From contig CAYNYK010000009.1 in assembly GCA_964401335.1 (NCBI GenBank), positions 1,174 to 65,173 of the forward strand: a stretch of DNA of 64,000 nt, given 5' to 3'. This document shows positions 34,326 to 58,871 of this stretch, piece after piece. The stretch comes from an uncultured Planctomycetales bacterium (GTDB lineage Bacteria > Planctomycetota > Phycisphaerae > UBA1845 > PWPN01). A program made the translations under genes and the position numbers. Numbering within the stretch: position 1 is the first letter of the stretch; every line of letters starts with the position of its first letter. A model generated the notes under the pieces. The model saw nothing but the letters and a program-made list of their open reading frames with translations, did no database searches and was not told the origin of the DNA.

Positions 34326-34440
34326 TCAGTAGTCAGCGATCAGCGATCAGCTTTCAGGTTTCAGCAAACAGCCCCCCCTTGTCCGGATGATTTCCGAGCA
34401 GGGCGGGGCTGTTTGCTGAATACGGATTACTGACGGCTGA
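34326..34440. terminator. Bidirectional terminator-like hairpin flanked by TCAG heptamer repeats
   Basis: 16-bp perfect stem TTCAGCAAACAGCCCC (34360-75)/GGGGCTGTTTGCTGAA (34405-20) between convergent genes; six TCAGnnn heptamers 34326-34367. Confidence 0.7.
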
Positions 34441-34450
34441 GTACTTTCTC

Positions 34451-34753
34451 TCACAGTGGCGCGGCGCAGATGAGCATAATCGCGATAGTGATAGGGAAGC
34501 CGGCGTTATGGGCGACGGTCCAGAAGTCGTCGGAAGCTCGGATCAGGTCGTGTTCTTTTTCGCGTTGCGACTTATAGCTGGCCTTAACGTCAAGGACCAC
34601 AAGGTGATCGGCCTGGGTCTGAATCTGCTGCAAGGCGGCGTACTGAGCGGCCGTAAAGGGTAGCGGCCGTACCGGAGGATTTTCCGCCCGAGCTAGGACG
34701 GGAGCGGTCAACAGGATCCCGAGTAACGCGGCTACGACTATTGACTTACGCAT
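34451..34753 (-). CDS. Small secreted protein with hydrophobic C-terminus
   Basis: Signal peptide ending ARA; C-terminal AGFPITIAIMLICAAPL; start 3 nt after the C39 gene stop. Confidence 0.7.
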   Translation of the reverse strand: MRKSIVVAALLGILLTAPVLARAENPPVRPLPFTAAQYAALQQIQTQADHLVVLDVKASYKSQREKEHDLIRASDDFWTVAHNAGFPITIAIMLICAAPL

Positions 34754-34756
34754 GGG

Positions 34757-35563: not shown

Positions 35564-35628
35564 CCGAGGAAAGGTCGCACTGGGGATGCGGTTGCATGGA
35601 AATGTTCGTAATATACTCTATGGTGGCG

Positions 35629-35782
35629 AAAGCACGGGCAAACCCTTGTCCCGCTGCTGCGTGACAAGGGCCTGCCCATGCCACCCAGCCGCGTGACAAG
35701 GGCCTGCCCATGCCACCCAGCCGCGCGACAAGGGCCTGCCCATGCCACCCAGCCGTGTGACAAGGGCCTGCCCATGCCACCC
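35629..35782. repeat. REP-like family 2 palindrome extended into four tandem 32-bp units
   Basis: GACAAGGGCCTGCCCATGCCACCC at 35663, 35695, 35727 and 35759 with near-identical 8-bp linkers; preceded by inverted half CACGGGCAAACCCTTGTC. Confidence 0.9.
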
Positions 35783-35829
35783 TGCTGAGGGTGACTAAAC
35801 GTTACAGAAGGATAAATGGGGCGTTTAAC

Positions 35830-40864: not shown

Positions 40865-43060
40865 TCAGTTCGAACGGCCGAGTTCCTTCAACACCTTCTC
40901 ATAAAAGCGGATGCATTCCTTGACGTCGGGTATATTGTTGTCCCAATTTTTTTCGTATTCGATGGTGATCGGGCCGGTGAAATTCTGCCGATGCAGCTCG
41001 GCCAGTACTCCGCGAATATTCGACGCCCCCTGTCCCCAGAAAACATCCTCGGCCTCCTTGGTGGCCGTATTCGCCCCCTCGACATCTTTCATGTGTACGC
41101 ACAGGATACGGCCGGCGAGCAGCTTAAGACCCTCAACCGTATCCAATCCTGTCCTCCCCCAGTGCCCCACGTCCGGACAAGCCCCGATCCGCGGATTGCA
41201 CTTGCCGATATGTTCCATCACGATTTTGGGGTCCCAGTAGCGACTGGGCTTGGCGTGATTGTGGACGGCCACGTTTATGCTGAACTCCTGGGTCAGACGA
41301 TCCAGGCTGGGAAACGATTCGAACTCCGGCTCGGAGACGATGGTTTCGATCCCCATGGCCTTGGCATATTCGAAGATACGCCGGTTTTTCGCTTCATCGA
41401 CGGTAAACGTGCCCATGTACATGGTCGGCATTTGCAAGTCGGCTTCCAACAGCAGGCGTTTGATCTGGTCCATGACCTCGATGGAGGGGTTTTCCGGATC
41501 GATCTTGAGCTTGGGTTGGGCCGGACTCAACGGTTGTCCCGCGAAAGCCTCGATATATTTAAGCCCGAGCGTTTTGGCCTTTTCCACCGCCTCGGTGAAG
41601 GTGAATTTATGGAACGTCCAGAGCTGAATGCCCAGACGCCAATCTTGTGGAAACATGGGCGTAATCTCCTTGACGGCGACTTTGCGGAACTGCACCCAGC
41701 CGTAGGAGTGGGCATCCTGCAGGCCGATATAGCCGACCAGCGGCCGAGCGTATAGAGCCGGCACCCGCCGGGCATCCACGTCGATAACCGGAATGTTGTC
41801 CACGAACACCTTGTAACTTGGCCCGCGACATTGAATCTCGAAATTGTGCCATTCGAAGGAACGGATTTCCGGCCGGGGCTCGACGGGCACCACGCCGTAG
41901 AGCGCGCCGGACCAGTGGATATTGTCCTGCACGGTGTCCCGGTTCGTGATCTGGACCTCGCTGCCGGTGTGCCACGGATAACCCGCGTTTTCCTCCTTGG
42001 CGCGCACGAACACGCCGGAGTTGCCGTTCTCGCTGAGTCTCCACTCGGCGCGCAGGATGAAATCGCCGTAAATACGCCGCGAGCGTAACCAATCGCCGCC
42101 CAAGCCGCTGAGGCTGGTCAACAGGCCGTCATGCACCATATAGGCTTCGGGTTTGCCGACAATGTGCCAGTTATCCAGGTTCTTGCCGTTGAATAATTCG
42201 ACAAAACCCTCGTCCGATGGATCGGGCAAGCGGCCGGCCAGATGGCGAATCGACTGAAGGACCAAACGGCGATAGTTTGGATCGTGAAATGTGGCAGGGC
42301 CGTGGCCCGGACGAAGGTAAACGATCGGGCTTTTGGCGTAGGTATGGATCCAGCCGATGATCCTGTCGCTGGCCGGATGATCCACGGTTAGGAGCGGATG
42401 TACCCCGGGCAATACTTCGGTATGCAGATAACACTCGTCCACGACATCAAAATCCTTCATGTTCCGGGTGATGGGATGATCGGTATCGGCAATATGCACC
42501 TGCAAGGGAACGGCGGGCTTATAGGTGCTGGCCGGTTGACCGTTCCAAGGGTCACGATGATATCGCCCGCCGATGATTTTGATTCCCTCCGGCCAGTTGT
42601 GCCAGGTATCCAGCATGTGGTGGAGGGCCAAAATCGGACGGCCGCGCTTCAAGGCATCGAGCACGAGTTGCTGGTCCGTCGGACTGATTTCCAGCGGCCG
42701 GTCGTACCAGACCAATACGTCGTATTCCGCGTCTTTTTCGGGCAGCAGCCACTTGTAAGCGTCGGGGTGGGACACTTCCCGCCAGGTGATATCCGGCTGA
42801 TCATTGAAGACCGCGAAGAACTCCTTGCGGTCGAAAGCGTGTCCGCCGGTGAAGATCAGCACACGGATCATGTTTTCCCGCGCGGGGGGCGGCGGATATT
42901 GTCGTGGCCGTTCGGTGGACAGGAGCAAGGGATAGGGATTGCTTGGCGGCAAAGGTTCGGTGAACAGTTGTTGGGCGGGGGCGGTTTCCGCGGCGCGACA
43001 GACGTGCAGACCAACTGTTGTCAGCAGGATTGTCAGGAAAGTGAATTTCAATTGTCGCAT
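40865..43060 (-). CDS. ThuA-like + DUF1080 + sugar-phosphate isomerase/epimerase TIM-barrel fusion
   Basis: VLIFTGGHAFD...PGHG (ThuA); LFNGKNLDNW, NSGVFVR, IGLQD (DUF1080); LGIQLWTF, VAVHNH, DVGHW, HMKD, TIEYE (AP_endonuc_2-like). Confidence 0.9.
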   Translation of the reverse strand: MRQLKFTFLTILLTTVGLHVCRAAETAPAQQLFTEPLPPSNPYPLLLSTERPRQYPPPPARENMIRVLIFTGGHAFDRKEFFAVFNDQPDITWREVSHPDAYKWLLPEKDAEYDVLVWYDRPLEISPTDQQLVLDALKRGRPILALHHMLDTWHNWPEGIKIIGGRYHRDPWNGQPASTYKPAVPLQVHIADTDHPITRNMKDFDVVDECYLHTEVLPGVHPLLTVDHPASDRIIGWIHTYAKSPIVYLRPGHGPATFHDPNYRRLVLQSIRHLAGRLPDPSDEGFVELFNGKNLDNWHIVGKPEAYMVHDGLLTSLSGLGGDWLRSRRIYGDFILRAEWRLSENGNSGVFVRAKEENAGYPWHTGSEVQITNRDTVQDNIHWSGALYGVVPVEPRPEIRSFEWHNFEIQCRGPSYKVFVDNIPVIDVDARRVPALYARPLVGYIGLQDAHSYGWVQFRKVAVKEITPMFPQDWRLGIQLWTFHKFTFTEAVEKAKTLGLKYIEAFAGQPLSPAQPKLKIDPENPSIEVMDQIKRLLLEADLQMPTMYMGTFTVDEAKNRRIFEYAKAMGIETIVSEPEFESFPSLDRLTQEFSINVAVHNHAKPSRYWDPKIVMEHIGKCNPRIGACPDVGHWGRTGLDTVEGLKLLAGRILCVHMKDVEGANTATKEAEDVFWGQGASNIRGVLAELHRQNFTGPITIEYEKNWDNNIPDVKECIRFYEKVLKELGRSN

Positions 43061-43267
43061 GACTGGTTCCTTTGGGCCAAGCGCGAGACGATGGTCGCGT
43101 TTGACGAAAGCTTCGGCTTCCTTATATAGTCAACCCGCACGGCCGACTCCACCGCGACCCGGCCGATCGAAATATGCAAAGCCGCGGCGACGGCCGCGAT
43201 TATCCCTGTGTTTAATTGCGCATGCAAATCGTGATAGGTTGTGGTTACTCAAAAGGAGGTATCCCTC

Positions 43268-44368
43268 ATGCACCGATTGCATCTCAGTCGGACCGTGACC
43301 TTGGTGGGCGTTTTGTTTTTCAGTTGCCCCTTGATCGCCGCCGATCCTCAACCGCCGGTGAAGTACACCGAGCCCAAGGGAACGGTGGTTCCCCGATACC
43401 GCTACGTCGGCAAGGACGCCGTCGGGAAAATTCCTTTCTACATGGAATATAGCAGTCAGGAGGATAATCGGCATCTATATCGCGGCAACAAGGAGGCCTG
43501 GTTTGAAAATCTGGAGACGATCACCGAATATTCGACCCTGTTTCCCATCCGTCTGTTCCAGGCCGATGATCCCGAAATCTTCGAATGGATCATCGAACTG
43601 ACCCAGGCCGCCTATAAAAAGAAACAACTGATCGTTTTCTTCGGTTATGATTACAAGGGCGTGGATCGGCTCGGCAGGGTACTGGATCGGCTGGAAAAAT
43701 TGCCCGAGGGTCAGGATATCATCCGCAATATCATAGCGAACCATCTGGCGGATGAGCCTTATCTCGGCGGCCAAACGGCCGAGCAGGTGGAGGAGCTGAT
43801 TGCCTATTTCGATGACAAGATCAAGTCGCGTTATCCCCACATTCAATCCTGGATCAATTTCGCGGTCTCGACCGAGCAATTGAAAACCTGGGGCACGGGC
43901 AAGGAGGGCGACGGGCGCCGGCGATTGCCCAAGGGGTTGGATATCGTCGGGATCGACTGGTACGCCTTTCTCGGCAACGGGACGCGGAATAACTGGGGGC
44001 ATAAGGATTTCCGCGTGGCGGAAAAACAAATCCTCGACACGGTTTTTCCCAAATACATGGATGACCAGACCAAACGTATGAAGGAGGCGATCGCGGCCTG
44101 CTATCCGCCCGGTAAGGAGCCGATGATGTGGTTTGTCGGTTGCTCCTCGTATCCGTTTGGCATTGCCCATCCGACACCACCCTCGGTCCAGGACGCTTAT
44201 TTCGAGTATATCAAGAATTCCGAATGGGCCGGCCTGTGCTGGTGGATTTTCGAGGACTTCAAGGAGGGTGGCGAGCATGGGAATACCTTTCTCGGTGGAC
44301 GTAATTACGAGGTCATCCGTTGCCACCAGCGGCACGGCCAGCGGATTCGTGATGAACGTTTGTATTAG
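43268..44368 (+). CDS. Secreted hypothetical protein, possible GH-like TIM barrel
   Basis: AGGAGG RBS, signal peptide; HLADEP, DIVGIDWY and GLCWW motifs resemble clan GH-A-like barrels. Confidence 0.55.
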   Translation: MHRLHLSRTVTLVGVLFFSCPLIAADPQPPVKYTEPKGTVVPRYRYVGKDAVGKIPFYMEYSSQEDNRHLYRGNKEAWFENLETITEYSTLFPIRLFQADDPEIFEWIIELTQAAYKKKQLIVFFGYDYKGVDRLGRVLDRLEKLPEGQDIIRNIIANHLADEPYLGGQTAEQVEELIAYFDDKIKSRYPHIQSWINFAVSTEQLKTWGTGKEGDGRRRLPKGLDIVGIDWYAFLGNGTRNNWGHKDFRVAEKQILDTVFPKYMDDQTKRMKEAIAACYPPGKEPMMWFVGCSSYPFGIAHPTPPSVQDAYFEYIKNSEWAGLCWWIFEDFKEGGEHGNTFLGGRNYEVIRCHQRHGQRIRDERLY

Positions 44369-44411: not shown

Positions 44412-47400
44412 ATGACAATGAGCAAAACGATGTTTTCTCGCCACCGACGGATACTGTTGATCATCTTTTCGGTTGTCAGCAGGGCGCAAGCCGCTCCCAC
44501 GGTGTTATATGCCCCTTCCGAGGTGGTCGAAGGCCGACGCTTTCGCCTCGTGCTCGAAGTCCCGGCCGGCGAATCGGAACCAAAGCTCCTGTTTGCCCAA
44601 GAAGCTCTGGAACTTTTTGATCAATCGCGTCCCGCGGCCGGGCAAACGAAGCGCTATTATTATTTTCGGGCGTTAAAACCACGCGAGGAAACGGTTATCG
44701 AGTACGAGGCTGGCGCCGGTCGCCAACTCCTCTGCAAAATGAAAATCTGGTCCGAGCGGGACAACATGACCGTCCTGCGCAAGCAGGGTGATATCCAGTT
44801 GCCGCGGCGCTGGCCGTTGGGTGAGCCGGATTTCGCGGAATACAAAACCGGCATGACCATGCGTTCGGCCGAGGAGGTTGAGCGCATTCGTGCCGAATAC
44901 CGGGCCGGGTTGAAGGCCGGTCAAGAGCAATCGATTTATCCCCCCGCCGAGGAAATCGCCAACCGCTCGGACGATGATTTGTATGATTGGTTGCCACCGG
45001 CGGACATTCCCCGCGGAATCTTCGTGGGCCTGGAATCGGGCTGCCCCGTGCATGGCCGGGAAATCTTCAAACACGGCGGGCATTATCCGTGGAAATTTGA
45101 TCTGTTAAGCAAACCCTGGAAAGCCCAGTGTCCCGTGGGTGGAGAGCTGTATCCTTCCAATGATTTCGCCCAAGGCGACATGACCGGCGGTCCCTATCCC
45201 GACGACGGTTACGGCCAGATTCACGAGGGCAAAATCAACGCCTTCATCGCCGTTTATTGTTCGTACCGTTCGCATGATGCGGCCCAATGCATGACCACGC
45301 TGGCCGACGGTTATCTCAAGACGGGCAATCCCCGTTACGCCTACAAAGCGGGCATTCTCTTGGCCCGGATGGCCCGCGAGTGGGGCTACCTCGCCGGCCA
45401 GTTGCACCACCGGTATATGTTCCACAGCGAAGTGATCGGCGGTTTGAGTTGGTATAAATCTTTGCCATCCGAAAAGGATCGGTTGTACGGCCCGCGCGCA
45501 CCGCAACGGGTTTACGAACTGAACGGCGTGGGCATGACCAACTATCGCCTGAACATCGCTCCAAGTACGCCGGCCTGGGCCCGGGCTTACGATGTGTTGT
45601 TCGAGGCCCTGTCCAACGATCAAACCTTGGCCGACTATTTGAAAAGCAAGGGCCTACCGGTGCGCACGCCCGCCGACGTGACCCGCTATATCGAGGACCA
45701 TTTCTGGCGCGTGTTGGCTCAGGCGATCATGGACCGCTGCGCCGCCTCCAACGCTCCGGAAGAGCAGATGGCCATGCAGTCGGTCGCCCTGTGCCTGAAT
45801 TATCCCCGTTGTCGTGAGCTGGTGGCGTGGAACTATTTTGGCGATATCGGCATGCAGTCGTTTCTGGTCAACGGGTATTACCGGGACGGGTCGGCCACCG
45901 AATCCACCGGCGGCTATAACGGGATTCATGTGGCCAAGCTCTGGCCTATCGAGGAGATGATGGATCGCCTGCGGGCCTTGCGGCCGGATATCTATACAAA
46001 GGAAGCTTTTCCACCGCTGGCGGATAATCCGAAATACAAATCCGTTTTCGATATCCCGGTGGATATCATGAGCGTCGACGGGATGTATCCTTGGATCGGA
46101 GATACCGGCGGCGTACCGGACAATAAAATCTCCGGGCCGGTCTATTACCCCAATATGCATGATGCCCGGGAAACCTACGAATATGCCTGGAGAACCTTCA
46201 AAGATCCCAAGTATGCACAGGTTCTCTGGCAGGGTAAAGGATACGAACCAGGTCCGGACAGCGGTATTACCCGGGAGGAAATCGAGCAAGCTATCACCCG
46301 GATTGGTCCGGAGTTCCGGCGGGAAAGCGCTTTATTCGACGGCTATCGGCTGGCCCTGTTACGCAGCGAAACCCCACCGCCATCGATGGCCGATCTTGCC
46401 AAGGAATGGGAACCACGGGCCGTCTGGATGTTCTACGGCGACGTGCCCGACCATCGCCGCGACGAGTCGATGAGCGTGGGCCTGTTCGCCAATCACATGA
46501 GCCATATCCGCCACCTCGGCTATCCGGCCGGCGCCAAGCGTGATCTTTGGGAAGGCAACTGGGCGACCACCTTCAACGCCCGGATCATCAAGGATTATTA
46601 CCATCTTTTGTACAAAGGGTCGGCCATCGCTTTTGCCCAGTTGGATGGGGTGAGCTTGTTCGCTGCCGACGGCGACGCCTACACGCCGCCCGAGCCTCCG
46701 GATGGTTTCTATAAGCGCTACCCCGATATGCTGGTCCGCCGCACTCTTTCGTTGGTCGATCTCGGCCCGAGGGATTTTTATTTCGTGGACATCTTCCGGC
46801 TCAAGGGCGGCGAGGAGCAGTATTGGAGCTTCCACGCCAATCCGTCGCGATTAACCATTACCGGCGCGGGCGAATTCGTGAAGCAGGCAGGCGGGACGGC
46901 CGCCGGAGCGGACGTACCCTATGGATCCATCGAGGAACTGCCGCGTCCGACCAATCCGCCGGGTACCAATCCGCCCGGGCCGTATCGCTCTATTGGAACG
47001 CTGGCACATCTTTATGATGTTGAACGGGCCCGGCCTGGCGGACCATGGCAGGCGGACTGGGCCTTGCAGGATACCGATGATCTTCATTTGCGGATGAATA
47101 TCCTGACGCCGCGTGAAGTGGAAATCATCACCGCGACCGGCCATCACCCCATGGCGCCCAAGGAGGCCGCCCCCTATTCCGTGCGGTTCCTGCTCCAGCA
47201 TGCCAAGGGCCCCGAACCACTGGCCAAGCAATTCGTGAGCGTGGTCCATACATATCAAGGTTGCTCGCCGATCACATCCGTACAATGCCTGGCTGACGCC
47301 CCGGAACAGGATTTCGTGGCCTGTAAAGTCGAGACCGACCAGCGCACGGATTATATTCTCAGCGACGAGGCTCCCGCCGACCCCTCCGATCCATCAATTT

Positions 47401-48293
47401 CGGCCGCGGTGAGGAACGTGGGCGATAGCATTGTATTCAGCGGGCAATACGGCCTATTTCGTGAGGACCAAGGCCGGTTTTCCTCAGTTGCGTTGATTCG
47501 CGGGACGCAATTATTGAAGAATGGGATCGGTATCCAGGCGGCCGCCCCGGCGTACTTTGGTACGATCATCGGCCTGGACCGTCCGGCCCGAAAAATCATC
47601 ATCACTCCGGTTCCTACTCTGCCTCGGGCCTGGCTGAACAAGTACATTTATATCGGCGACGATATACGACGCAGCGCATACCGGGTAACCGATTGTCGCA
47701 AACTGGATGAACAGCGGTGCGAGCTGACCTTGAACTGGCCTTCGCTGCTTCTGGAAGGGCGGATCACCGATTTCGAGGACGGTAAGATTCATACGAATAC
47801 TTCGTTACCGATCATCGGCTGGCATTTTTATTCGCGCTACGCTCATCACGCCCGGCTGACCGATGTGAGACAAACCCACGAGTTTCTGCTCGATCACATC
47901 AAAACGATCGACTGGACGAGCAAGCTCTATGGACCCTTGGTAATAGCCGCGCAAGACGCCGGGCGGGCCGACGCCGAAACCTTGGAGAGGATTTTCGGCA
48001 AGAACGGTAAGTTCCACATCTATGATTACGGGACGGGAGACCGGGTGACGTTTCCGTCGGCCACGCAACTGCGGGTCATCGGCCCGGATACCTATGCCTT
48101 GCATCTCGATCAGGATGTGACCGTCAGCCTGCCGCGGCCTCGGGCCGGAGGGGTATCGAAAGTCTTATGTCGAGTACGCGGCGCTGCGGAGTGGCGAGAA
48201 CTTTCCTACCGCCTTGAAACGGGGCAAATCCTCGTGTCACCGCCTGCGGCATTGTTGGAAGACACCGAGTTGGAGCTCAGGATTGCACCATGA
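44412..48293 (+). CDS. Large secreted heparinase II/III-like protein (1293 aa)
   Basis: Signal peptide; CPVHG, YYRDGSATESTGGYN, HRRDESMSVGLFA, YFVDIFRLKGGEEQYWSFH. Confidence 0.7.
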   Translation: MTMSKTMFSRHRRILLIIFSVVSRAQAAPTVLYAPSEVVEGRRFRLVLEVPAGESEPKLLFAQEALELFDQSRPAAGQTKRYYYFRALKPREETVIEYEAGAGRQLLCKMKIWSERDNMTVLRKQGDIQLPRRWPLGEPDFAEYKTGMTMRSAEEVERIRAEYRAGLKAGQEQSIYPPAEEIANRSDDDLYDWLPPADIPRGIFVGLESGCPVHGREIFKHGGHYPWKFDLLSKPWKAQCPVGGELYPSNDFAQGDMTGGPYPDDGYGQIHEGKINAFIAVYCSYRSHDAAQCMTTLADGYLKTGNPRYAYKAGILLARMAREWGYLAGQLHHRYMFHSEVIGGLSWYKSLPSEKDRLYGPRAPQRVYELNGVGMTNYRLNIAPSTPAWARAYDVLFEALSNDQTLADYLKSKGLPVRTPADVTRYIEDHFWRVLAQAIMDRCAASNAPEEQMAMQSVALCLNYPRCRELVAWNYFGDIGMQSFLVNGYYRDGSATESTGGYNGIHVAKLWPIEEMMDRLRALRPDIYTKEAFPPLADNPKYKSVFDIPVDIMSVDGMYPWIGDTGGVPDNKISGPVYYPNMHDARETYEYAWRTFKDPKYAQVLWQGKGYEPGPDSGITREEIEQAITRIGPEFRRESALFDGYRLALLRSETPPPSMADLAKEWEPRAVWMFYGDVPDHRRDESMSVGLFANHMSHIRHLGYPAGAKRDLWEGNWATTFNARIIKDYYHLLYKGSAIAFAQLDGVSLFAADGDAYTPPEPPDGFYKRYPDMLVRRTLSLVDLGPRDFYFVDIFRLKGGEEQYWSFHANPSRLTITGAGEFVKQAGGTAAGADVPYGSIEELPRPTNPPGTNPPGPYRSIGTLAHLYDVERARPGGPWQADWALQDTDDLHLRMNILTPREVEIITATGHHPMAPKEAAPYSVRFLLQHAKGPEPLAKQFVSVVHTYQGCSPITSVQCLADAPEQDFVACKVETDQRTDYILSDEAPADPSDPSISAAVRNVGDSIVFSGQYGLFREDQGRFSSVALIRGTQLLKNGIGIQAAAPAYFGTIIGLDRPARKIIITPVPTLPRAWLNKYIYIGDDIRRSAYRVTDCRKLDEQRCELTLNWPSLLLEGRITDFEDGKIHTNTSLPIIGWHFYSRYAHHARLTDVRQTHEFLLDHIKTIDWTSKLYGPLVIAAQDAGRADAETLERIFGKNGKFHIYDYGTGDRVTFPSATQLRVIGPDTYALHLDQDVTVSLPRPRAGGVSKVLCRVRGAAEWRELSYRLETGQILVSPPAALLEDTELELRIAP

Positions 48294-48646: not shown

Positions 48647-48676
48647 TTGACAAGGCTACTTAAACGCCGATATTAT
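48647..48676 (+). promoter_or_regulatory. Sigma70 promoter of the DUF1559-type gene
   Basis: TTGACA-N18-TATTAT downstream of a very AT-rich tract (48560-48645). Confidence 0.6.
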
Positions 48677-48823
48677 CTTGGGGAAAGGGGTAGGAGGTGT
48701 GAAAAGCCGCCGTGCGTTCAGTTTTTTCAGCGGAACGCAGGGAGGATGAGGCGAAAGTTTTTTTTTCAAACAATGAGTATTAGTTGCGGCCGCTGGCGGG
48801 GTTCAATAAAGAGGTATTATGCA

Positions 48824-49804
48824 ATGAAACAAACAGGCGTCAGACTGAATCGCGGTAAAAACACGCGGGGCTTTACTTTGATCGAAGTGCTGGTCGTGGT
48901 CGCGATCATCGCTCTGCTGATTGCTATTCTTTTACCCTCTTTAAAACGAGCCCGGGAAAACGCGCGGAGTTCCGTTTGTCGTACGAACCTGCACGATCTT
49001 GGTACTTCTTTGTACATGTATGCAAACACATATAAAGATTGGTTTCCCCCTACGCCCTATGTCGGCTCGAAATGGCGGGGAAGCACGGTGGGGGCGGCCG
49101 TCGTTAATGACGACAATTTATTTATCCTTTGGTATAGTAAATTCGCCACTAATGTGAAGATTTTTAATTGCCCATCGACCAATTATATTCTGCGCGAGCC
49201 GTCAAGACAGCATACCACCCGCGTGGATAGTGATCAGGGCATTTACCCCGGAGGATACTATTTGGAAGTTCGCACCGTCATTGACGGCGTGCCTCAGCTT
49301 CGTAATGATTTCGCCCGGGCAGCTCAGCTTAAAGGAAGAGAGGGGTTTGGCTCCAGTTATGAGTATGGTAATTGGATATCCAGCTATAAACCCGAAAGTT
49401 CCCGAGTTGATTGGTTTCATAGCCGGATTAACCGGATAACTCCTCAGAGTACCGCCCTTGATGAATATGATGGTGACTTCCAAGCACCCTGGACGATACC
49501 TTTTGAAACAGATACCGATAGCGCTAGTATCTATCGTGGCAAACAATTTGGCCGGGTCGTCAAGAGGCCTACTTCAAAGTTTCCACAAGCGTCCATTTCC
49601 ATGTTGATGCATGATGCGGACGAGAGCGGCGAAATCATCGGCGGTCCACCTGATCCGCCAGGCGCTAAAAACAATACACCGGAAGACTGGGATAACCACG
49701 GTAAGGCAGGGTTGAATATTCTTTTTGTTGACGGCCATGTAGACTTTGCCAACGCAAAAACTGCTAAGCGTATCTGGAGACAACAGGTGATTCCTCCCAA
49801 TTAG
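48824..49804 (+). CDS. Prepilin-type N-terminal cleavage/methylation and H-X9-DG domain protein (DUF1559-type)
   Basis: RG|[30 protein letters not shown]...C..NL and C-terminal [15 protein letters not shown]; GAGGT RBS. Confidence 0.92.
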
Positions 49805-50270: not shown

Positions 50271-52931
50271 ATGATGTATCGCCCCATACGATTCGTGCTA
50301 ATGGTCATTGGTTTTGTGCATTGTGCCTATGTTGCTTTTGCGGTTGAACCTCCGGAATGGGCCGTGGTTGAATGTAAAGGCCTCAAGGCTTTATCCGAGG
50401 TGGTTGACTACTGGATTGATCGGCAAGCGCCGGACGGGAGTTTTGGGTTTGGGCTGGACGACGATTGCGAGTTTTATACCGGCTGGCCCATTCTGGTCTA
50501 TGCGGCCGACGATCAGCGCGTACTCGAAGCCCTGCGCAAAAATCTGGACTGGGTTTGGTATAACGATGAGGTACAGGACGGTTATCAGGCCCACGTCGGC
50601 GACGCCGAGCACAGTTCCGAGGTGACCTCGTACACGCAGCCGCTGCTTTCCCACGCTGATTACGGCAACCCGGTCCTGATCGAGCGGCTCATGGAAACAA
50701 GCAAAAATATGGAGTGTTGGACGGCGACAAATAAGGCCGGGCATCGTCATTTCCGCGGGCACTGGCTCGGTTCGCAGGGCATGCGCGATTATTCCTACTT
50801 TGGGGCTGACGCCACCATTGTCGCCCGGGCGACGATTCCCATGATGCATCTGCTTCTGTACAACCGCGATCCCTACCTGGCCAGAATATGCACCGAGTGG
50901 GGCCGGGCCTGGGTCGATCATGCGAAGGAAACCAGGTGGAACAAACCCTACGGCCTGTTGCCCGCCGAGGTCGTATTCCACACCGACGAGGCCGGCGGGT
51001 TCACCCGGCAATGGTGGAGTTCGGCCTCTTCGGGTTACGACATTTACAAATCACCCTGGTACATGAACCGCCTGCATCAGATGTTGCTGGTCAACTACAT
51101 GATTACCGGCGATACCGATTTTCTTGTCCCCATGCAGGAGACACTCAAGTTTTTTGCCCAAGCCACGCCGGAGAATACGCCGGCCGGTGTCATGTGGCCG
51201 GCATGGTATACGGATCGGGTTTCGCCGCCGACCTATGGCCGCACGCCGGAGCAGATGCCTCTGATCTGGCAGGATTACCGAGGACGCATCGCCGGTTATT
51301 TTCCCATGTTCTACCGTTACGCGACGGGCGATACCCAGTTTGATTCTTTATGGGGGACAGTGCCATCGATGCCGACACCCCAAGAGGCCAGGGCTTCGGC
51401 CCGGAGCAACGGCCAGTCCGCCATCGACGGGGCGAAGGCGGCTCTCGAAGCGGCCAAGACCATCAACGTAAAAAACTCCGTCGACAACTACCGAGCCAAC
51501 CTCAACGTGGGCGGTTTCCCCGCTCTTTATCACGGCGGCAACAACTGGGTTGACCTTCCCCGGCCGGCCTGCCGCTGGCTCAAGGGGAATTACGAGCTGG
51601 CCGTCGTTCTGCTTGAACACTCCGGGAAACATTTCAAAGCCCTCTGCTGTAATGTCGGGGCGAACCAACGTGAATTCGGCGTTCAACTTTTCGAGCTTAA
51701 ACCGGGCACTTACCGTATAACGCTCGGCATCGACACCTCCGCCAACAACCGGCCGGATAAAATCGTTCGCGAGGAGACGATCAAGGTCGAGCGGGGTACG
51801 ATCCTGCCGCTCGATCTGGAGCGCGGGCACGAATATATCATTGAACTGGAACAGTTGGCGACCGGTCCGGAATGGGCTTCGCGAGCCGATGTGGCCGTCT
51901 GCGACCGTGATCTCTACGCGGTTCCCGCCGCCCCAGCTCCCGGTACCGCCGCCGTCCTGAAAGTACGGGTGCATAACATCGGTACCGAAGATGCCCGGAA
52001 TGTAGGCGTCCGGGCCGAGGAGATGCCCTCCGGCCGGTTCATCGGCGAGCGGACCATTGACCTGCTGGCGGCGCCGATCAATCTTGTGCCCAGTCAAGTC
52101 ATGGTCGAAATGCCTTGGACTATCGGGGCCGACGCCGAAGGCGTGCGCGTAGTGGTGGATCAAGGCGGTTTTGTTGAGGAGATTTACGAAGGAAATAATT
52201 CTGCGGAAATCCGCTTGGCGGACATGCCCGACGGCCCGCCGCGTAAGCGAAAAATCTTTATCCCCGGTTGGTACGAGATGCAGAAATTGGGCCCTGTGAC
52301 GACCTATACGGCAGCCTACGTGAAAAACATCAAAATGGACGGGAAGTTGGATGATTCCGAATGGGGCAAGGTCGAGAAGCACAGTGCGCGAATCGACATG
52401 GATGGCCGCAAGACGGAGAAGGAAACCATCCTGCGAATCGCTTACGGCGACGAGGCCATCTATATCGCCGTTGAATGTCCCGAACCGGACATGGATTTGT
52501 TGCATGAAAGCGCTACGCAGCGCGATGCTTACGAGGTGTTCGGTGACGACGGCGTCGAAATCTTCATCGACACCAATCTGGATCGGACTACGTATCTACA
52601 GTTCGCTTTTACTGTTGGCAATATCCAGGCCGAGGGGCAATACTACAATTTCAGTATCTTCAACGAACCGTGGGAATCGGTCGTGCATAAGGGCAAGGAT
52701 TTCTGGTCCGCCGAGGTACGCATTCCCTACAGTACGCTCGGGGCCGTGGCTCGGCCGGGGCAAACCTGGGGGATCAATATCTATCGTAATGTGAAAACCT
52801 TCCCCGTGCCTGAAACCGAGGCGGAGCGGCAAAAGGGTTGGAAGACCAGCGAGCAACACCTGTTTTCGCCGACTCATGATTACCACGAACCCAGCCGCTT
52901 CGCCGAGGTGACTTTCGGCCCCAAACCGTGA
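50271..52931 (+). CDS. Secreted uncharacterised protein, paralogue 1 (alpha/alpha toroid-like + CARDB-like + CBM9-like)
   Basis: Signal peptide; YWIDRQAPDGSFG; VRVHNIGTEDA (CARDB-like); MDGKLDDSEW...DDGVEIFID...WSAEVRIPY...TWGINIYR (CBM9-like). Confidence 0.8.
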   Translation: MMYRPIRFVLMVIGFVHCAYVAFAVEPPEWAVVECKGLKALSEVVDYWIDRQAPDGSFGFGLDDDCEFYTGWPILVYAADDQRVLEALRKNLDWVWYNDEVQDGYQAHVGDAEHSSEVTSYTQPLLSHADYGNPVLIERLMETSKNMECWTATNKAGHRHFRGHWLGSQGMRDYSYFGADATIVARATIPMMHLLLYNRDPYLARICTEWGRAWVDHAKETRWNKPYGLLPAEVVFHTDEAGGFTRQWWSSASSGYDIYKSPWYMNRLHQMLLVNYMITGDTDFLVPMQETLKFFAQATPENTPAGVMWPAWYTDRVSPPTYGRTPEQMPLIWQDYRGRIAGYFPMFYRYATGDTQFDSLWGTVPSMPTPQEARASARSNGQSAIDGAKAALEAAKTINVKNSVDNYRANLNVGGFPALYHGGNNWVDLPRPACRWLKGNYELAVVLLEHSGKHFKALCCNVGANQREFGVQLFELKPGTYRITLGIDTSANNRPDKIVREETIKVERGTILPLDLERGHEYIIELEQLATGPEWASRADVAVCDRDLYAVPAAPAPGTAAVLKVRVHNIGTEDARNVGVRAEEMPSGRFIGERTIDLLAAPINLVPSQVMVEMPWTIGADAEGVRVVVDQGGFVEEIYEGNNSAEIRLADMPDGPPRKRKIFIPGWYEMQKLGPVTTYTAAYVKNIKMDGKLDDSEWGKVEKHSARIDMDGRKTEKETILRIAYGDEAIYIAVECPEPDMDLLHESATQRDAYEVFGDDGVEIFIDTNLDRTTYLQFAFTVGNIQAEGQYYNFSIFNEPWESVVHKGKDFWSAEVRIPYSTLGAVARPGQTWGINIYRNVKTFPVPETEAERQKGWKTSEQHLFSPTHDYHEPSRFAEVTFGPKP

Positions 52932-53372
52932 GCGCGTGAGCGCTGCCAAGGGTGGCTCACGTCTTCATACGTGGGGGAGCGATGATCGATAGCGGATGAC
53001 TCATGCATCGATTCGTCATTTTCCCGCCTCGACCATGTGCATCTGGAGACAGGCGGCCCGCTCGATCGAAGACTGGTCACGAACAAGCACCCACAAACGG
53101 AGGCCCGGCTTGGCACCGGGTCTCCGTTTGAAGGTGCCACCCAATCGTATCGGAGAGCTACCCGATTACATCAGAAGACTGGTGGCTACGTTGCATCCCC
53201 AATGACTAACTTTCTTTTTTAGAAAGACCAGCTATTGACGGGCACCGGCCGATTCGAGCATGATATCAACCCGCGGAGCGGGTGGTCCTCGATGAATCCC
53301 CCGTCGGATCGCGAGTTGCTGCTTGGCATAGTCCTGTTGCGAGAATCTCTCCCGAGCATAAGGAGTACCGTC

Positions 53373-56015
53373 GTGCATGTCACACAGAGAATCGCGTCGC
53401 TGAGTTTGCTTATAATGCCGATCATCGCGTACGCCGCCGACCCGCCGGAGTGGGCGGTGATGGAATGTCGCGGCCTGCAGGCCCTGTGCGAGGCGGTGCA
53501 TTATTGGGTCGACCGGCAGGACGCCGACGGCAGCTTTGGTTTCGGCGGAATGGACCGAGACTGTGAACTCTACAAGAATTGGGCGATTTTTCTATACGCG
53601 GCCGACGATCAGCGCATACGCGAAGCCTTGCACAAGGCCGTCGACTGTGTCTGGTACGACGAGCGGGTGCAGGATGGTTTTCCCGCTGCGCCGGCGGATG
53701 CGATGCATGCCGGCCAGGTGATCTCTTATACGCAACCGATCCTGGCCATCGCCGATTACGGCCATCCGATTCTTATTGAGCGTTGGATGATTACCTCGCA
53801 AAACCTGCCGCGCTGGACGGCCATCAACCGCGCCGGGCATCGGCATTTTCGCGGCCATTGGCTGGGCTCTCAGGAAATACGCGAATATTCCTACTTCGGC
53901 GCTGATGCCACCATTAATGCTCGGACGGTTCTGCCCGCGCTGCATCTGCTTTGGTACAACCGCGATCCCGATCTCGCGCGTTACTGTATCGAATGGGGTC
54001 AGGCCTGGTTGGATCATGCCCGGGAGACCCATGGCGGCAAACCTTATGGATTGCTGCCCAGCGAGGTGGTTTTTGAAACGGACGAAGCGGGTGGCTTCAC
54101 GAAAACCTGGTACGATTCAGCCGCTTCCGGATCCTCGATGCATAAGAACCCAACCTGGATGAGCCGGCTCATGCAATTGTTGATGATGAATCACCAGCTC
54201 ACCGGCAATCCCGACTTCTTGATACCGCTCCGGGAAACGCTCAAATTCTACGCCACCGCCCGGCCGGACAACCTCCCCGATAATGTGCAAATGTGGCCGG
54301 AGTGGTACACGGACCGCGTGCCCCCGCGCGACGGCAAAAAACCGGAGGAAATGCCTTTTGTATGGGCGGACTACAAAGCGCGCATAGGCGGCAAGTTTCT
54401 GCCGATCTATTGGGGCTTCACGAACGATCATTCCTTCGATGCCTGGTACGGGATGTCCCCGCCGAAACCCACCCGTCAAACAGCGATGGAGGCCGGCCAA
54501 TGGGGACTGCAAGAGGCCGCCCGAGCGATGGAGACCGCCAAGACCATTAACGTAAAAGGCAGCCTCGAATTTTACCGGGCCAGAGTCCACGAGGGAGTGT
54601 ACCCCCTGCTCTATCACGGCGGCGACAATGAAGTGGACTGGCCTCGACCGGCGTGCCGATGGCTTAAGGGGTATGGCGAATTGGGCGTCGTGCTGCTGGA
54701 GCATTCTCAGAAAAATTTCAAAGCGCTTTGCTGCAACGTGGGTAAGGAAAAACGCGCGTTCGGCGTGCAGTTGTTCGAGTTGGAACCGGGCATGTATCGG
54801 ATGACGCTGGGCATCGATAAAAACGGTGACGATCAGGCGGATACTCTTTTACGCGATGAAAATGTCATGATCGAGCGGGGCACGCGGGTGTTCTTTGATC
54901 TGGAACGAGGCCATGAGTACTTCGTGGAATTTCAACAGATGGCCAAAGGCCCGGCCTGGTGGTCGCGAGCGGATGTGGCCGTGTGCGAGCGCGACCTGTT
55001 TGTCGTCCCGGCCGGCCCAGCCGCGGGAACCCAGGCGACGCTGCGGGTACGCGTGCATAACCTCGGCACGGAAGACGCTCGACAAGTGACGGTTTGGGCG
55101 GAGGAATTGCCGGCCGGCACGTTTATCGGCATGAAAACGATCGAGATGTTGGCCCGCCCGCGGAACATGACGCCCAGCAACGTCATCGTCGAGCTTCCCT
55201 GGTCGATCAGCGCGGAGGCAAAGGGTGTTCGCGTCATCGTGGACAAGATGAACGTGATCGAGGAGCTTTACGAGGGCAACAATACCGCCGAAATCATGCT
55301 GGCGGACATGCCCGAGGGGCCGCGCATCAAGCGGAAGCTCTATGTGCCGGCCTGGTATGAACGGCAGAAAATGGGACCGGTGGCCCAATACACCGCGCCC
55401 TATGTCCAGGGGATCGTCATTGACGGAAAAGTAAACGAGCCGGCGTGGCAGAAAGCCGAGCGGCGCGGTCCGCTGGGCGATCTGGAAGGCAAGCCTAATG
55501 ATAAACAGACTTTCGTGCGTATGGCGTATGACGACGCCGCTCTTTACGTAGCCTTCGAGTGTCCCGAGCCGTACATGAATCTGATCCAATCGCTGACCAC
55601 CGTGCATGACGGCCACATGTTCAACGACGAATGCGCGGAAATATTCGTGGACACCAACCTGGACAAACAAACGTATCTGCAATTCGCTTTCAACACGCTC
55701 AATGTTCAGGCCGAGGGGCAATATTTCAATTTCAGCATTTTCAACGAGCCGTGGGAATCGGCGGTGCATCTGGATAAGGATTTCTGGTCGGCCGAGGCCA
55801 GAATACCGTTTACCACCTTACAGGCCGTGGCCCGACCCGGACAGACATGGGGGATCAACCTGTATCGGAACGTGCGGACCTTCCCGGCGCCGGAATCCGA
55901 GGAGGAGCGACGCAAGGGCTGGAAGGGCACCGAGCGTCATGTCTTGTCCCCGACTTACGACGATTTTCATCAGCCGGATCGCTTCGCGGAGGTGACCTTT
56001 GCTCGTAAGCCGTAA
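53373..56015 (+). CDS. Paralogue 2 of the same family
   Basis: AAGGAG then GTG 53373; signal peptide then DPPEWAVMEC; colinear with paralogues 1 and 3. Confidence 0.8.
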   Translation: MHVTQRIASLSLLIMPIIAYAADPPEWAVMECRGLQALCEAVHYWVDRQDADGSFGFGGMDRDCELYKNWAIFLYAADDQRIREALHKAVDCVWYDERVQDGFPAAPADAMHAGQVISYTQPILAIADYGHPILIERWMITSQNLPRWTAINRAGHRHFRGHWLGSQEIREYSYFGADATINARTVLPALHLLWYNRDPDLARYCIEWGQAWLDHARETHGGKPYGLLPSEVVFETDEAGGFTKTWYDSAASGSSMHKNPTWMSRLMQLLMMNHQLTGNPDFLIPLRETLKFYATARPDNLPDNVQMWPEWYTDRVPPRDGKKPEEMPFVWADYKARIGGKFLPIYWGFTNDHSFDAWYGMSPPKPTRQTAMEAGQWGLQEAARAMETAKTINVKGSLEFYRARVHEGVYPLLYHGGDNEVDWPRPACRWLKGYGELGVVLLEHSQKNFKALCCNVGKEKRAFGVQLFELEPGMYRMTLGIDKNGDDQADTLLRDENVMIERGTRVFFDLERGHEYFVEFQQMAKGPAWWSRADVAVCERDLFVVPAGPAAGTQATLRVRVHNLGTEDARQVTVWAEELPAGTFIGMKTIEMLARPRNMTPSNVIVELPWSISAEAKGVRVIVDKMNVIEELYEGNNTAEIMLADMPEGPRIKRKLYVPAWYERQKMGPVAQYTAPYVQGIVIDGKVNEPAWQKAERRGPLGDLEGKPNDKQTFVRMAYDDAALYVAFECPEPYMNLIQSLTTVHDGHMFNDECAEIFVDTNLDKQTYLQFAFNTLNVQAEGQYFNFSIFNEPWESAVHLDKDFWSAEARIPFTTLQAVARPGQTWGINLYRNVRTFPAPESEEERRKGWKGTERHVLSPTYDDFHQPDRFAEVTFARKP

Positions 56016-56181
56016 TGGATTTATTATTTTTAGACCGCAGGGCATTTGACGTCCGACTCCCTTTCGGGTCACGATGTTCATTTGCGGTGTAAGCCATCCT
56101 GTGTACAGCCGTTGAAACGCCGTACGTCGGATCGGTTCCATGAGTATCTATTTTGTCGGCTAGACGCAGAGGAGCAAGACA

Positions 56182-58824
56182 ATGCACAAGGCATGGATGA
56201 TTTGGCTGCTCGGGTGGGTGATGACTTCGTCGGTGGTATCGGCCGTGGAACCGCCGGAGTGGGCGGTGCTCGAATGCCGGGGCCTCCAGGATCTGGCCCA
56301 AGTCGCTCATTATTGGGTGGATCGACAAAGTCCGGAAGGGAGCTTCGGCTTCGGAGGACTGGACCGCGATTGTGAATTTTTCAACTCATGGATTGTTTTC
56401 ATTTATACCGCTGATGATCAGCGCATTCTCGAAGCCCTGCGCAAGGGTTTGGATTATGTCTGGTACCACGATCATGTTCAGGATGGATACGGGGCTTCGC
56501 CGACCGACGCTCAGCATGGCGGCGAGGTGATGTCCTATACCCAACCGTTGTTGGCCGTGGCCGACTACGGCAATCCCATCCTTATCGAGCGCTGGATGAT
56601 CACCGCCCAGAACATGAATCGCTGGACGGCCATCAACCGTGCCGGGCATCGCCATTTTCGCGGGCATTGGCTCGGCTCACAGGAAACGCGGGACTATTCC
56701 TACTTTGGTGCCGACGCAACCATTATCGGCCGAGTTACTCTGCCCATGATGCATCTGCTCTGGTACAACCGCGATCCCGATCTGGCCCGCCTTTGTACGG
56801 AGTGGGGTCAAGCCTGGGTGGATCATGCCAAAGAGACCCGATGGGGCAAGCCTTATGGCCTGTTGCCCGGCGAGGTCGTTTTTGAGAGTGATGAGGCCGG
56901 AGGATTCACGAAGAACTGGTATGACTCCGCTTCGTCCGGTTTTCCATTGTACAAAAGCCCCTGGTTCATGACCCGTCTGCTGCAAATGTTGATGATGAAC
57001 TACCAGATCACCGGCAACCCGGATTTTCTACTGCCCATTCGCGAGACGCTTAGATTTTATGCCACCGCCCGGCCGGATAACCTGCCCCAGGGCGTCACCA
57101 TGTGGCCCGCCTGGTACAAGGATCGTATCCCTCCGCGGGATGGCAAGAAGCCGGAAGACATGCCTTATGTCTGGGAACACTACAAAAACCAGTTGGGCGA
57201 TCGTGCTCTTAAAATGTATCGGGGGTTTACCGGCGATTGTTCGTTTGATGCCTGGTATGGTCATAAAACGCAGCCGCCCTCGCGCCAGATGGCCTTGGAG
57301 ACCGGTAAATGGGCGAGCCGTGAAGCCACAAAACTCCTACAGATTGCACGGACCATCAATGTACAAGGTAATCTTGAGCATTATCGGGCGAAAATAAGCG
57401 AAGGAGATTTTCCTGCCCTTTATCACGGGGGGAACAACTGGGTGGACTGGCCACGACCGGCCTGCCGGTGGATCAACGGTCGTTATGAACTCGGCGTGGT
57501 TCTGCTGAATCACTCTCCCACTCGATTCAAGGCCTTGTGCTGCAACATAGGCAAGGATAAACGAAACTTCGGTTTACAGTTGTTTGAATTGGAGCCGGGA
57601 ATCTATCGTCTATCCTTGGGCATCGACACCAACGGCGATGACCGAGCGGATAAACAAGTGCGCGAGGAAGACATCTCGATGGAACGGGGTACCGAATTGG
57701 CCTTGGAATTGGAACAAGGCCATGAATACCTTGTCGAATTGCAGCAGATGGCGAAAGGGCCGGCATGGCAATCACGGGCGGACGTAGCCGTGTGTGGACA
57801 GGATCTGTTTGCGATACCGGCGGCTCCCGTTGCCGGAAGCCAGGCGACGCTGAAAGTTCGAGTGCATAATATAGGCTCGGAGGATGCCCGGCAGGTTACG
57901 GTATGGGCGGAGGAACTGCCGAGTGGTCGATTTATCGGCATGGATACGATTAACATACTGGCCCGGCCGCGGAACATGATCCCGAGCAGCGTGATGGTCG
58001 AGATGCCCTGGTCGATCAGCGCGGAAGCCACGGGGGTACGCGTTATCGCGGACAAGATGAACGTGGTCGAGGAGCTTTACGAGGGGAACAACGTTGCGGA
58101 AATAAAACTGGCGGAACTGCCGGAGGGGCCGCGAATCAAGCGCAAGATCTACTTGCCAGCCTGGTACGAACGCCAGAAAGAGGGTCCGGTGGCCGACTAT
58201 ACGGCACCTTATGTCCAGGGTATCAAGATTGACGGAAAAATCGACGAGCCTGCCTGGCAGAAGGCCGAGCGTCGCGGACCACTGACCGATATGGAGGGTC
58301 AACCTACCGAAAAGCAGACTTACGTGCGAATGGCCTATGGCGAGGATGCCCTCTACGTTGCTTTTGAGTGCCCTGAGCCCAATATGGATCTGATCCATGA
58401 TCTGGCTACCCTGCATGATGATTACGCCATTTTCGGCGATGAAAGCGCGGAAATCTTCATCGACACCAATCTCGACAAACGGACGTATCTGCAGTTCGCG
58501 TTTAACACCGCGAATGTTCAGGCCGAGGGGCAATATTATAACTTCACCATTTATAACGAGCCTTGGGAATCGGCGGTATTCAAGGGCAAGGATTACTGGT
58601 CGGCCGAGGCGAAAATACCATTTGCTTCCTTAAAAGCGGTTGCCAAGGCCGGGCAGATCTGGGGCATCAACCTGTATCGCACCGTTCGGACCTTCAAAAT
58701 TCCGGAATCCGAGGCGGAGCGACGTAAAGGCTGGAAGGGCACCGAACGCCATGTCTTCTCGGTGACCGACGATTTTCATGCGCCGGATCGTTTTGGCGAG
58801 GTGACCTTTGGACCGAAGAACTGA
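56182..58824 (+). CDS. Paralogue 3 of the same family
   Basis: GAGGAG RBS; signal peptide then VEPPEWAVLEC; colinear with paralogues 1 and 2. Confidence 0.8.
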   Translation: MHKAWMIWLLGWVMTSSVVSAVEPPEWAVLECRGLQDLAQVAHYWVDRQSPEGSFGFGGLDRDCEFFNSWIVFIYTADDQRILEALRKGLDYVWYHDHVQDGYGASPTDAQHGGEVMSYTQPLLAVADYGNPILIERWMITAQNMNRWTAINRAGHRHFRGHWLGSQETRDYSYFGADATIIGRVTLPMMHLLWYNRDPDLARLCTEWGQAWVDHAKETRWGKPYGLLPGEVVFESDEAGGFTKNWYDSASSGFPLYKSPWFMTRLLQMLMMNYQITGNPDFLLPIRETLRFYATARPDNLPQGVTMWPAWYKDRIPPRDGKKPEDMPYVWEHYKNQLGDRALKMYRGFTGDCSFDAWYGHKTQPPSRQMALETGKWASREATKLLQIARTINVQGNLEHYRAKISEGDFPALYHGGNNWVDWPRPACRWINGRYELGVVLLNHSPTRFKALCCNIGKDKRNFGLQLFELEPGIYRLSLGIDTNGDDRADKQVREEDISMERGTELALELEQGHEYLVELQQMAKGPAWQSRADVAVCGQDLFAIPAAPVAGSQATLKVRVHNIGSEDARQVTVWAEELPSGRFIGMDTINILARPRNMIPSSVMVEMPWSISAEATGVRVIADKMNVVEELYEGNNVAEIKLAELPEGPRIKRKIYLPAWYERQKEGPVADYTAPYVQGIKIDGKIDEPAWQKAERRGPLTDMEGQPTEKQTYVRMAYGEDALYVAFECPEPNMDLIHDLATLHDDYAIFGDESAEIFIDTNLDKRTYLQFAFNTANVQAEGQYYNFTIYNEPWESAVFKGKDYWSAEAKIPFASLKAVAKAGQIWGINLYRTVRTFKIPESEAERRKGWKGTERHVFSVTDDFHAPDRFGEVTFGPKN

Positions 58825-58832
58825 GCGGCATT

Positions 58833-58871
58833 AAAGAAAAACGAGGCCGGGATTTTTACGTCCCGGCCTCG
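58833..58871. terminator. Intrinsic terminator between paralogue 3 and argG
   Basis: CGAGGCCGGGA/TCCCGGCCTCG stem with an A-run on the left (U-tail for argG). Confidence 0.75.

Follow-up and report, generated by a model that had tools for sequence, protein, structure and literature searches.

Much of the proteome that Planctomycetota and their relatives secrete lacks annotation, although these bacteria are major degraders of complex polysaccharides in the sea and in soil. The characterized enzymes closest in fold to the proteins treated here are the GH76 α-1,6-mannanases, such as Salegentibacter GH76A (PDB entry 6shm) and Bacillus circulans Aman6 (5agd), (α/α)6 barrels in which an adjacent pair of aspartates acts as catalytic nucleophile and acid/base. 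Carbohydrate-binding modules (CBMs) of family CBM9 bind sugar through two stacking aromatic residues, and the Pfam CBM9 family also holds members that are not CBMs. Both kinds of protein have counterparts in a tandem array of three genes (copies 1–3) located in a 64,000-nucleotide stretch of contig CAYNYK010000009.1 from an uncultured Planctomycetales bacterium (assembly GCA_964401335.1); this whole stretch is hereafter the window. On balance, we favor the reading that the triplet consists of old tandem paralogs of a secreted, multi-module, glycan-cleaving protein and that its predicted ~400-residue (α/α)6 barrel founds an undescribed family, a candidate new CAZy family.

The likeness to GH76 lies in the barrel fold and in an adjacent Asp-Asp pair. 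In copy 1 this pair is D64-D65, which by sequence and helix topology is a candidate structural equivalent of the GH76 pair; PDB titles of the matched GH76 structures name D136/D137 and D125 inactive variants. The differences are the place of the pair, which is very close to the N-terminus, where helix 2 starts, the lack of a match between the N-terminal region and Pfam Glyco_hydro_76 or a GH76 sequence in PDB, and the addition, in the family described here, of β-hairpin insertions, the D-x-x-H-x-x-E motif, CARDB, a CBM9-like module, and a β-sandwich C-terminal to the barrel. On the evidence of the structural model, the N-terminal region is a new family inside a known fold class and not a member of GH76.

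Architecture and predicted fold

An earlier note on this DNA, made from the sequence alone, had described three co-oriented, colinear genes whose products each begin with a signal peptide followed by PPEWAV. The open reading frames (ORFs) and their alignment bear this out, with colinearity extending over the full length (893 alignment columns). Copies 1–3 share a signal peptide, an N-terminal region of ~510 residues, CARDB, and a CBM9-like module, and each gene is preceded by a Shine-Dalgarno-like motif of its own. Identity to copy 1 is 60% for copy 2 and 63% for copy 3, and between copies 2 and 3 it is ~70%. The longest run of nucleotide identity between copies is at most 25 nucleotides and the genes are therefore old paralogs, not an assembly artifact or the product of recent conversion. 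A mechanical ORF list begins copy 2 at TTG 53235. We prefer GTG 53373 because AAGGAG lies 9 nucleotides upstream, the database gene call P0002 agrees, and the signal peptide then aligns with those of copies 1 and 3.

In each copy a basic n-region and a hydrophobic core lead to an AxA/VxA signal-peptidase site directly before PPEWAV; judged by the usual rules, all three proteins are thus expected to carry a Sec signal peptide. The motifs quoted earlier are all present. Those that are shared include PPEWAV, YW[IV]DRQxxxGSFGFG, HRHFRGHWLGSQ...YFGADAT, and PRPACRW, and those that differ are DAEHSSE, DAMHAGQ, and DAQHGGE, as well as DDDCE versus DRDCE. The CARDB-like and CBM9-like modules likewise exceed Pfam thresholds in every copy (24.4, 27.5, and 27.8 bits for CARDB against a cut-off of 22.7; 34–38 bits for CBM9_1 against 23.4). 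The C-terminal ~190 residues also match xylanase CBM9 structures in PDB by sequence (E 7e-4 and 4e-3), namely CBM9-2 of Thermotoga maritima Xyn10A (1i82) and xylanase 7nwn, with low similarity. In the alignment to 1i82, one stacking Trp appears opposite an invariant Phe (F757 of copy 1) and the second position is outside the aligned stretch. Judged by the profile and structure-sequence matches, both modules are true members of their families.

Residues 1–540 have no match in Pfam, NCBIfam, or PDB sequences, whether searched as single sequences or as profiles. Profiles A1 and A3 returned no PDB sequence up to E = 10, and the N-terminal region matched no Pfam family at E ≤ 0.1. Only 16 close relatives, each with the order barrel-CARDB-CBM9, came out of an indexed search of 5.8 billion proteins. 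An exhaustive search with a hidden Markov model (HMM) of 1.84 billion cluster representatives recovered 810 relatives at E ≤ 1e-3, 261 of them at E ≤ 1e-30, and the best 150 of the 810 were taken as a sample of the superfamily. Superfamily members occur in Planctomycetota, Verrucomicrobiota, Armatimonadota, Marinimicrobia, Candidatus Zipacnadia, and WS1. In most members the domain is in the middle of a protein of ~1000–1500 residues, with CARDB after the barrel. Source databases name them "hypothetical protein" or after accessory parts (TPR/YbgF; YesR for a fused GH88/105 domain), and a literature search on this architecture, or on recent characterization, yielded nothing relevant. The lack of a family match, the breadth of the HMM hits, and the "hypothetical" names together show that the domain is real, widespread, and undescribed. 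By sequence comparison, it is an undescribed family within a multi-phylum superfamily. The view that the family is uncharacterized thus held up even by profile, and Foldseek gave distant fold matches, led by GH76. The family also extends beyond the triplet and the Phycisphaerae; it comprises three clades with several copies per genome. In Phycisphaerae Bin_018 (L014, 9812-12469), a family gene is split into ORFs of 131 and 722 residues, which could be a frameshift, a pseudogene, or an assembly error.

The fold was modeled with AlphaFold2. A run on an alignment of 15 close homologs only had a predicted local distance difference test score (pLDDT) of 72, and its top Foldseek match, an SSV19 phage tail protein with a template modeling (TM) score of 0.2, was meaningless. 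A second run used alignment A3, in which the close homologs are joined by 21 distant members, and reached a pLDDT of 90.3 and a predicted TM score of 0.90. This model has twelve helices in hairpins followed by an eight-strand β-sandwich (fragment residues 410–507). Among the top 50 PDB matches considered, the best are GH76 α-1,6-mannanases (E 5.6e-4, probability 1.00, TM 0.47–0.51 normalized to the target, ~355 columns). Glucose 2-epimerase, GH81, and GH127 follow, all of them (α/α)6 barrels. Separately from the barrel, the β-sandwich matches the C-terminal sandwiches of GH44, GH30, GH39, GH97, and GH51.

A fold of the (α/α) toroid type had been guessed from the sequence, and the model agrees with that guess. 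The likeness to QW repeats on which the guess leaned did not survive. The QW-repeat (α/α)6 proteins, such as squalene-hopene cyclase and prenyltransferase β-subunits, share with the family the fold class and one Y-W-x-D-R-Q-x3-G-x-F motif. That motif is the only QW-like one in the barrel, hence these are not QW-repeat proteins. Nor does the family conserve the DxDD of terpene cyclases, with Gly or Asn in most members at position 63 and a residue other than Asp at position 62. QW-repeat proteins are also missing from the Pfam matches and the top 50 fold matches, and the family here is secreted with CBM-like modules; a terpene cyclase reading was rejected. The clan of β-1,2-glucanases (GH144/162/189/192-194), defined by a Glu/Phe/Tyr triad (PMC12102758), was rejected as well, with no clan structure in the top 50 fold matches and no sequence match.

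Conserved residues, selection, and duplication history

Residue conservation was counted in 134 distant members aligned to the family HMM and is given in copy 1 numbering. Among the acidic residues, D64 is kept in 130 (97%), D65 in 127 (94%), E67 in 117 (87%), D111 in 129 (96%), E117 in 132 (98%), and D180 in 124. Other polar positions are H114 (130, 97%), R139 (124), K225 (126), and Q52 (119), and W30 is found in all 134, followed by P28 (133), W48 (132), and W214 (126). No Tyr is conserved at ≥80% among these members, and H158 and H160 are His in only 50–60%. In the secondary structure that DSSP assigns to the model, D180 falls at the beginning of helix 6 and K225 within the loop that follows helix 7. 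Because helices of an α/α barrel alternate in direction, D64/D65/E67, D111/H114/E117, D180, and K225 are predicted to be on one face of the barrel. The active sites of (α/α)6 enzymes are on that face, where the N-termini of helices 2, 4, and 6 meet. By this topology, the conserved residues are predicted to cluster in one pocket.

Across 148 other members, 25 positions are conserved at ≥85%. Copy 1 and its ortholog have the conserved residue at all 25, copy 3 at 24, copy 2 at 23, and the copy 2 ortholog at 22. The deviations are D64→R in copy 3, D64→R and E117→Q in copy 2, and D64→R, E67→D, and E117→Q in the copy 2 ortholog. Every one of them removes or alters a conserved carboxylate. Copies 2 and 3 nonetheless keep D65, E67, D111, H114, and D180. 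The earlier proposal of a diversified candidate active site is therefore sustained in part: the copies do differ in candidate residues, and all are kept by selection. The emphasis had been on position 113, which is Glu in 100 of the 134 distant members and E, M, Q, C, P, or A in the close family, and its variability leaves little weight on the differences there. The informative changes are instead those at position 64, where copies 2 and 3 have Arg for Asp, and at position 117, where copy 2 has Gln for Glu.

Selection and history were read with the help of a sister metagenome-assembled genome (MAG; GCA_964642815.1, labeled uncultured Planctomycetales) that has the same locus. Its gene order is a homolog of the window's 1293-residue gene, a DUF1559 pilin-like gene, orthologs of copy 1 and copy 2 (each 90% identical), argG, aroE, and leuA. 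In pairwise Nei-Gojobori comparisons with these orthologs, the ratio of nonsynonymous to synonymous substitutions (dN/dS) is 0.08 for copy 1, 0.10 for copy 2, and 0.084 for the N-terminal domain of copy 2. All three copies are thus judged to be under strong purifying selection, with a dN/dS of about 0.1 as computed for copies 1 and 2 against their orthologs. Since this selection persists despite the lost carboxylates, copies 2 and 3 are functional proteins, and the residue losses in two of the three copies suggest that the copies probably do different jobs.

Synonymous divergence (dS) between copies 2 and 3 is 1.36 and exceeds that between the genomes (0.54–0.70); their duplication therefore predates the split of the two genomes. 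Copy 3 is absent from the syntenic locus of the sister MAG. The second gene there is copy-2-like throughout, which rules out a copy 2/copy 3 chimera formed by unequal crossover, and the 3' flank matches the spacer between copy 3 and argG in the window, including a hairpin with a compensatory A·T→G·C change. It follows that copy 3 was cleanly lost in the sister MAG or, less likely, gained in the window genome. No gene conversion tracts were found between copies. In a neighbor-joining tree (Kimura distances, 100 bootstraps), the family forms three clades and each MAG has members of several. Copies 2 and 3 pair with 100% support inside a clade that also holds copy 1, P0003, and P0005. The sister MAG has at least six family genes, including another tandem pair, and such pairs together with the multiple copies per genome indicate that repeated duplication is a property of the family. 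The second pair (L001/L017, 261-4578) belongs to clade B, and its members are 87.5% identical to each other.

Predicted activity and competing explanations

Domain fusions and neighboring genes link the superfamily to glycans, as the earlier note had proposed. In 33 long members, the commonest partner domains are Laminin_G_3 (15) and CARDB (13), followed by galactose-binding-like modules (2). Single cases are GH88, GH2, DUF2961 (listed as GH172), DUF1961, a λ-carrageenase-type propeller, a Rha78A-type Ig domain, and CBM9. The GH88 domain is complete (E 4e-66) and belongs to P0043, whose source name is rhamnogalacturonyl hydrolase YesR. At other loci, family members neighbor GH78 rhamnosidases, GH123, GHL15, a β-helix/GH141-like protein, a sulfatase, GH172, and a Pec_lyase/ulvan-lyase-like protein; the last adjoins P0006, together with a GH78-like protein. 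In the window, the region with the genes at 32945-37056 and 40865-43060 is rich in genes for sugar-acid and oxidative sugar metabolism. Together, these partners and neighbors speak for a function in breaking down carbohydrates and give a loose pointer to glycans containing rhamnose, uronate, or sulfate as predicted substrates. Comparison of the family profile by hhalign with the fused GH88 domain, the Pec_lyase/ulvan-lyase-like neighbor, and the 1293-residue protein upstream of the array returned probabilities of 1%, 33%, and 0.4%, and homology to these proteins is unsupported.

A glycoside hydrolase is the most likely activity class for the barrel, with a lyase as second choice. We propose that after Sec export and signal-peptidase cleavage PPEWAV would become the mature N-terminus, and that the C-terminal CBM9-like module would hold the protein on its polysaccharide, with CARDB and the β-sandwich as spacers. 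A substrate chain may then bind at the barrel end where the N-termini of helices 2, 4, and 6 meet. This end would carry D64-D65-x-E67, D111-x-x-H114-x-x-E117, and D180, with R139 and K225 near, and its carboxylates would cleave the glycosidic bond through acid/base catalysis, in a manner similar to that of the Asp pair in GH76. With its complete set of residues, copy 1 may be the canonical enzyme. Copies 2 and 3 could have changed chemistry or specificity, for example with Arg recognizing a carboxylate or sulfate of the substrate, or could be non-catalytic binding partners.

Several points weigh against this reading. The fold match is distant (TM ~0.5, root mean square deviation ~8 Å, ~10% identity), and an (α/α)6 barrel alone is no proof of catalysis. 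The predicted clustering in a pocket rests on helix topology, and hydrolase and lyase are not separable by sequence. No activity, ligand, or solved structure is on record for any member of the superfamily. Catalytic fusion partners are single cases and neighborhoods are heterogeneous, with several members among housekeeping genes; the triplet itself abuts argG, aroE, and leuA.

Other activities for the barrel differ in how they account for these observations. A polysaccharide lyase, acting by β-elimination on uronic-acid polysaccharides, is the main rival, though rather unlikely. In such an enzyme H114 would be base or acid, the substrate carboxylate would be neutralized by R139 and K225 or by a metal on the acidic cluster, and a GH88/GH105-type hydrolase would consume the unsaturated products. 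The near-invariant His, Arg, and Lys are consistent with this chemistry, but (α/α)n lyases typically use a Tyr/His pair, and no Tyr is near-invariant here. The layout of (α/α)n barrel plus β-sandwich is that of several lyase families (PL8, PL15, PL17, and PL21 types), with which the family also shares secretion and uronate-related contexts, yet no polysaccharide lyase structure, PL5 included, is among the top 50 Foldseek matches and no Pfam lyase family is matched. The PL22 and GH28/rhamnogalacturonase-like genes in the window, the neighbors of P0006, and the GH88 fusion of P0043 would suit a lyase; that fusion, however, occurs in only one of the 33 long members. A sugar epimerase or isomerase of the N-acylglucosamine 2-epimerase type is highly improbable. 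A glucose 2-epimerase (8h1l) is among the fold matches (probability 1.0, TM 0.38), but this match is weaker than that to GH76 and Pfam GlcNAc_2-epim is not matched. Two catalytic His would be expected and only H114 is near-invariant, and a protein that is secreted with CBM-like modules would be expected to act on an extracellular polymer, not on free sugars.

Two further explanations take catalysis away from some or all copies. Copy 1 could be the sole catalyst, with copies 2 and 3 kept as pseudoenzymes that bind glycans or regulate as its partners, perhaps within a hetero-oligomer. All deviations fall in copies 2 and 3 and affect carboxylates only, with a third such change (E67D) in the copy 2 ortholog, and the copy 2 N-terminal domain is still under purifying selection. 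The three genes are adjacent, each with its own Shine-Dalgarno-like motif, but the sister MAG lacks copy 3, so a fixed three-subunit complex is not required, and other family members such as P0005 occur alone. Retuned catalysis fits the retention of D65, E67, D111, H114, and D180 equally well. We consider this explanation unlikely. It is quite improbable that the barrel is non-catalytic in all copies, which would make these secreted or surface proteins for glycan binding or adhesion whose acidic cluster holds a structural or ligand-bridging metal such as Ca2+. D64, D65, E67, D111, H114, and E117 do resemble a metal site as much as a catalytic one, the commonest partners are lectin-like or Ig-like (Laminin_G_3, CARDB, CBM9-like), and many members are outside loci for carbohydrate-active enzymes. 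Yet the strong fold matches are all enzymes, and a ~400-residue barrel that keeps ~25 positions nearly unchanged from phylum to phylum would more typically be one as well. In copies 2 and 3, an Arg in place of a metal ligand would abolish the site, and both are conserved nonetheless.

Within the preferred reading of a secreted glycan-cleaving protein, a bolder version can be put forward, which we regard as less likely than not. The barrel may found a new family in CAZy, or even a new clan, whose catalytic constellation (Asp-Asp-x-Glu plus Asp-x-x-His-x-x-Glu) has not been seen before, and the Asp64→Arg lineage of copies 2 and 3 may have different chemistry or an obligate role as non-catalytic partner. 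If so, the array would form a natural series that runs from an enzyme through a retuned enzyme to a pseudoenzyme, and its target would be an acidic or sulfated polysaccharide that no known enzyme degrades. The superfamily as delimited here has more than 800 sequence clusters, a confident fold, candidate catalytic residues, and links to carbohydrates, making it a target for founding a glycoside hydrolase or lyase family. The triplet serves as a built-in experiment; comparing the copy that has the full set of residues with those that have lost carboxylates can show which residues are catalytic and how the family diversified.

Neighboring genes and other features

The table lists the features of the array and the genes around it. 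Copy 3 and argG converge on a GC-rich hairpin of 11 pairs with flanking A and T runs, which probably closes the array as a terminator for both directions.

Table. Coordinates of the gene array, its modules and motifs, and neighboring genes (positions in nucleotides of the window unless a locus or residues, aa, are given)
Feature	Position	Strand	Remark
Copy 1	50271..52931	+	ORF, 886 aa
Copy 1 signal peptide	aa 1-24	+	rule-based
Copy 1 (α/α)6 barrel	aa ~25-425	+	AlphaFold2 model
Copy 1 D63-D64-D65-C66-E67	50457..50471	+	N-terminal start of barrel helix 2
Copy 1 D111-A-E-H114-S-S-E117	50601..50621	+	N-terminal start of barrel helix 4
Copy 1 β-sandwich	aa ~430-535	+	AlphaFold2 model
Copy 1 CARDB	aa 549-645, nt 51915-52205	+	Pfam profile
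Copy 1 CBM9-like	aa 690-880, nt 52338-52910	+	Pfam profile
Copy 2	53373..56015	+	ORF, 880 aa, GTG start
Copy 2 D-R-D-C-E	53553..53567	+	Arg for near-invariant Asp64
Copy 2 D-A-M-H-A-G-Q	53697..53717	+	Gln for near-invariant Glu117
Copy 2 CARDB	54999-55289	+	Pfam profile
Copy 2 CBM9-like	55419-55871	+	Pfam profile
Copy 3	56182..58824	+	ORF, 880 aa
Copy 3 D-R-D-C-E	56362..56376	+	Arg for near-invariant Asp64
Copy 3 D-A-Q-H-G-G-E	56506..56526	+	D, H, E kept
Copy 3 CARDB	57811-58098	+	Pfam profile
Copy 3 CBM9-like	58228-58806	+	Pfam profile
GC-rich hairpin	58842..58871	.	11 pairs, A and T runs on flanks; between convergent copy 3 and argG
GH28/rhamnogalacturonase-A-like β-helix + CARDB	27400-30378	-	991 aa; second CARDB-bearing putative glycanase in window
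OprB carbohydrate-selective porin	32945-34315		
PL22 oligogalacturonate lyase	35791-37056		
ThuA + 3-keto-disaccharide hydrolase + xylose-isomerase-like TIM barrel fusion	40865-43060	-	
DUF1559-type gene	48647-49804	+	
DUF1559-type gene, other locus	L010 2755-3798		
DUF1559-type gene, other locus	L012 8897-9487		
DUF1559-type gene, other locus	L022 11774-15303		
DUF1559-type gene, other locus	L023 11994-13393		

The only genes that recur from locus to locus as potential operon partners are DUF1559 pilin-like genes. Pseudopilin-like genes of this type (prepilin-type N-methylation/DUF1559) adjoin family members in five of 16 loci, and in Zipacnadia and Armatimonadia relatives two or three of them lie directly downstream. 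Such genes are very numerous in these phyla, and the adjacency may therefore be due to chance. The DUF1559-type protein of the window ends in an H-X9-DG-like motif.

Directly upstream of the array, the gene at 44412-48293 (+) encodes the protein of 1293 residues, which has a signal-peptide-like start and no match in Pfam, NCBIfam, or PDB. It is shared only with the sister MAG, where the gene in the same position is 89% identical. A putative ORF of 375 residues at 43241-44368 (+) has no Pfam match and no meaningful PDB match, and it overlaps an ORF of 341 residues on the opposite strand. A gene of the uroporphyrinogen decarboxylase family (URO-D-like) is near family members both in the window (37904-39001, +) and in the sister MAG, where it is beside P0006 (L030, 6264-7202).

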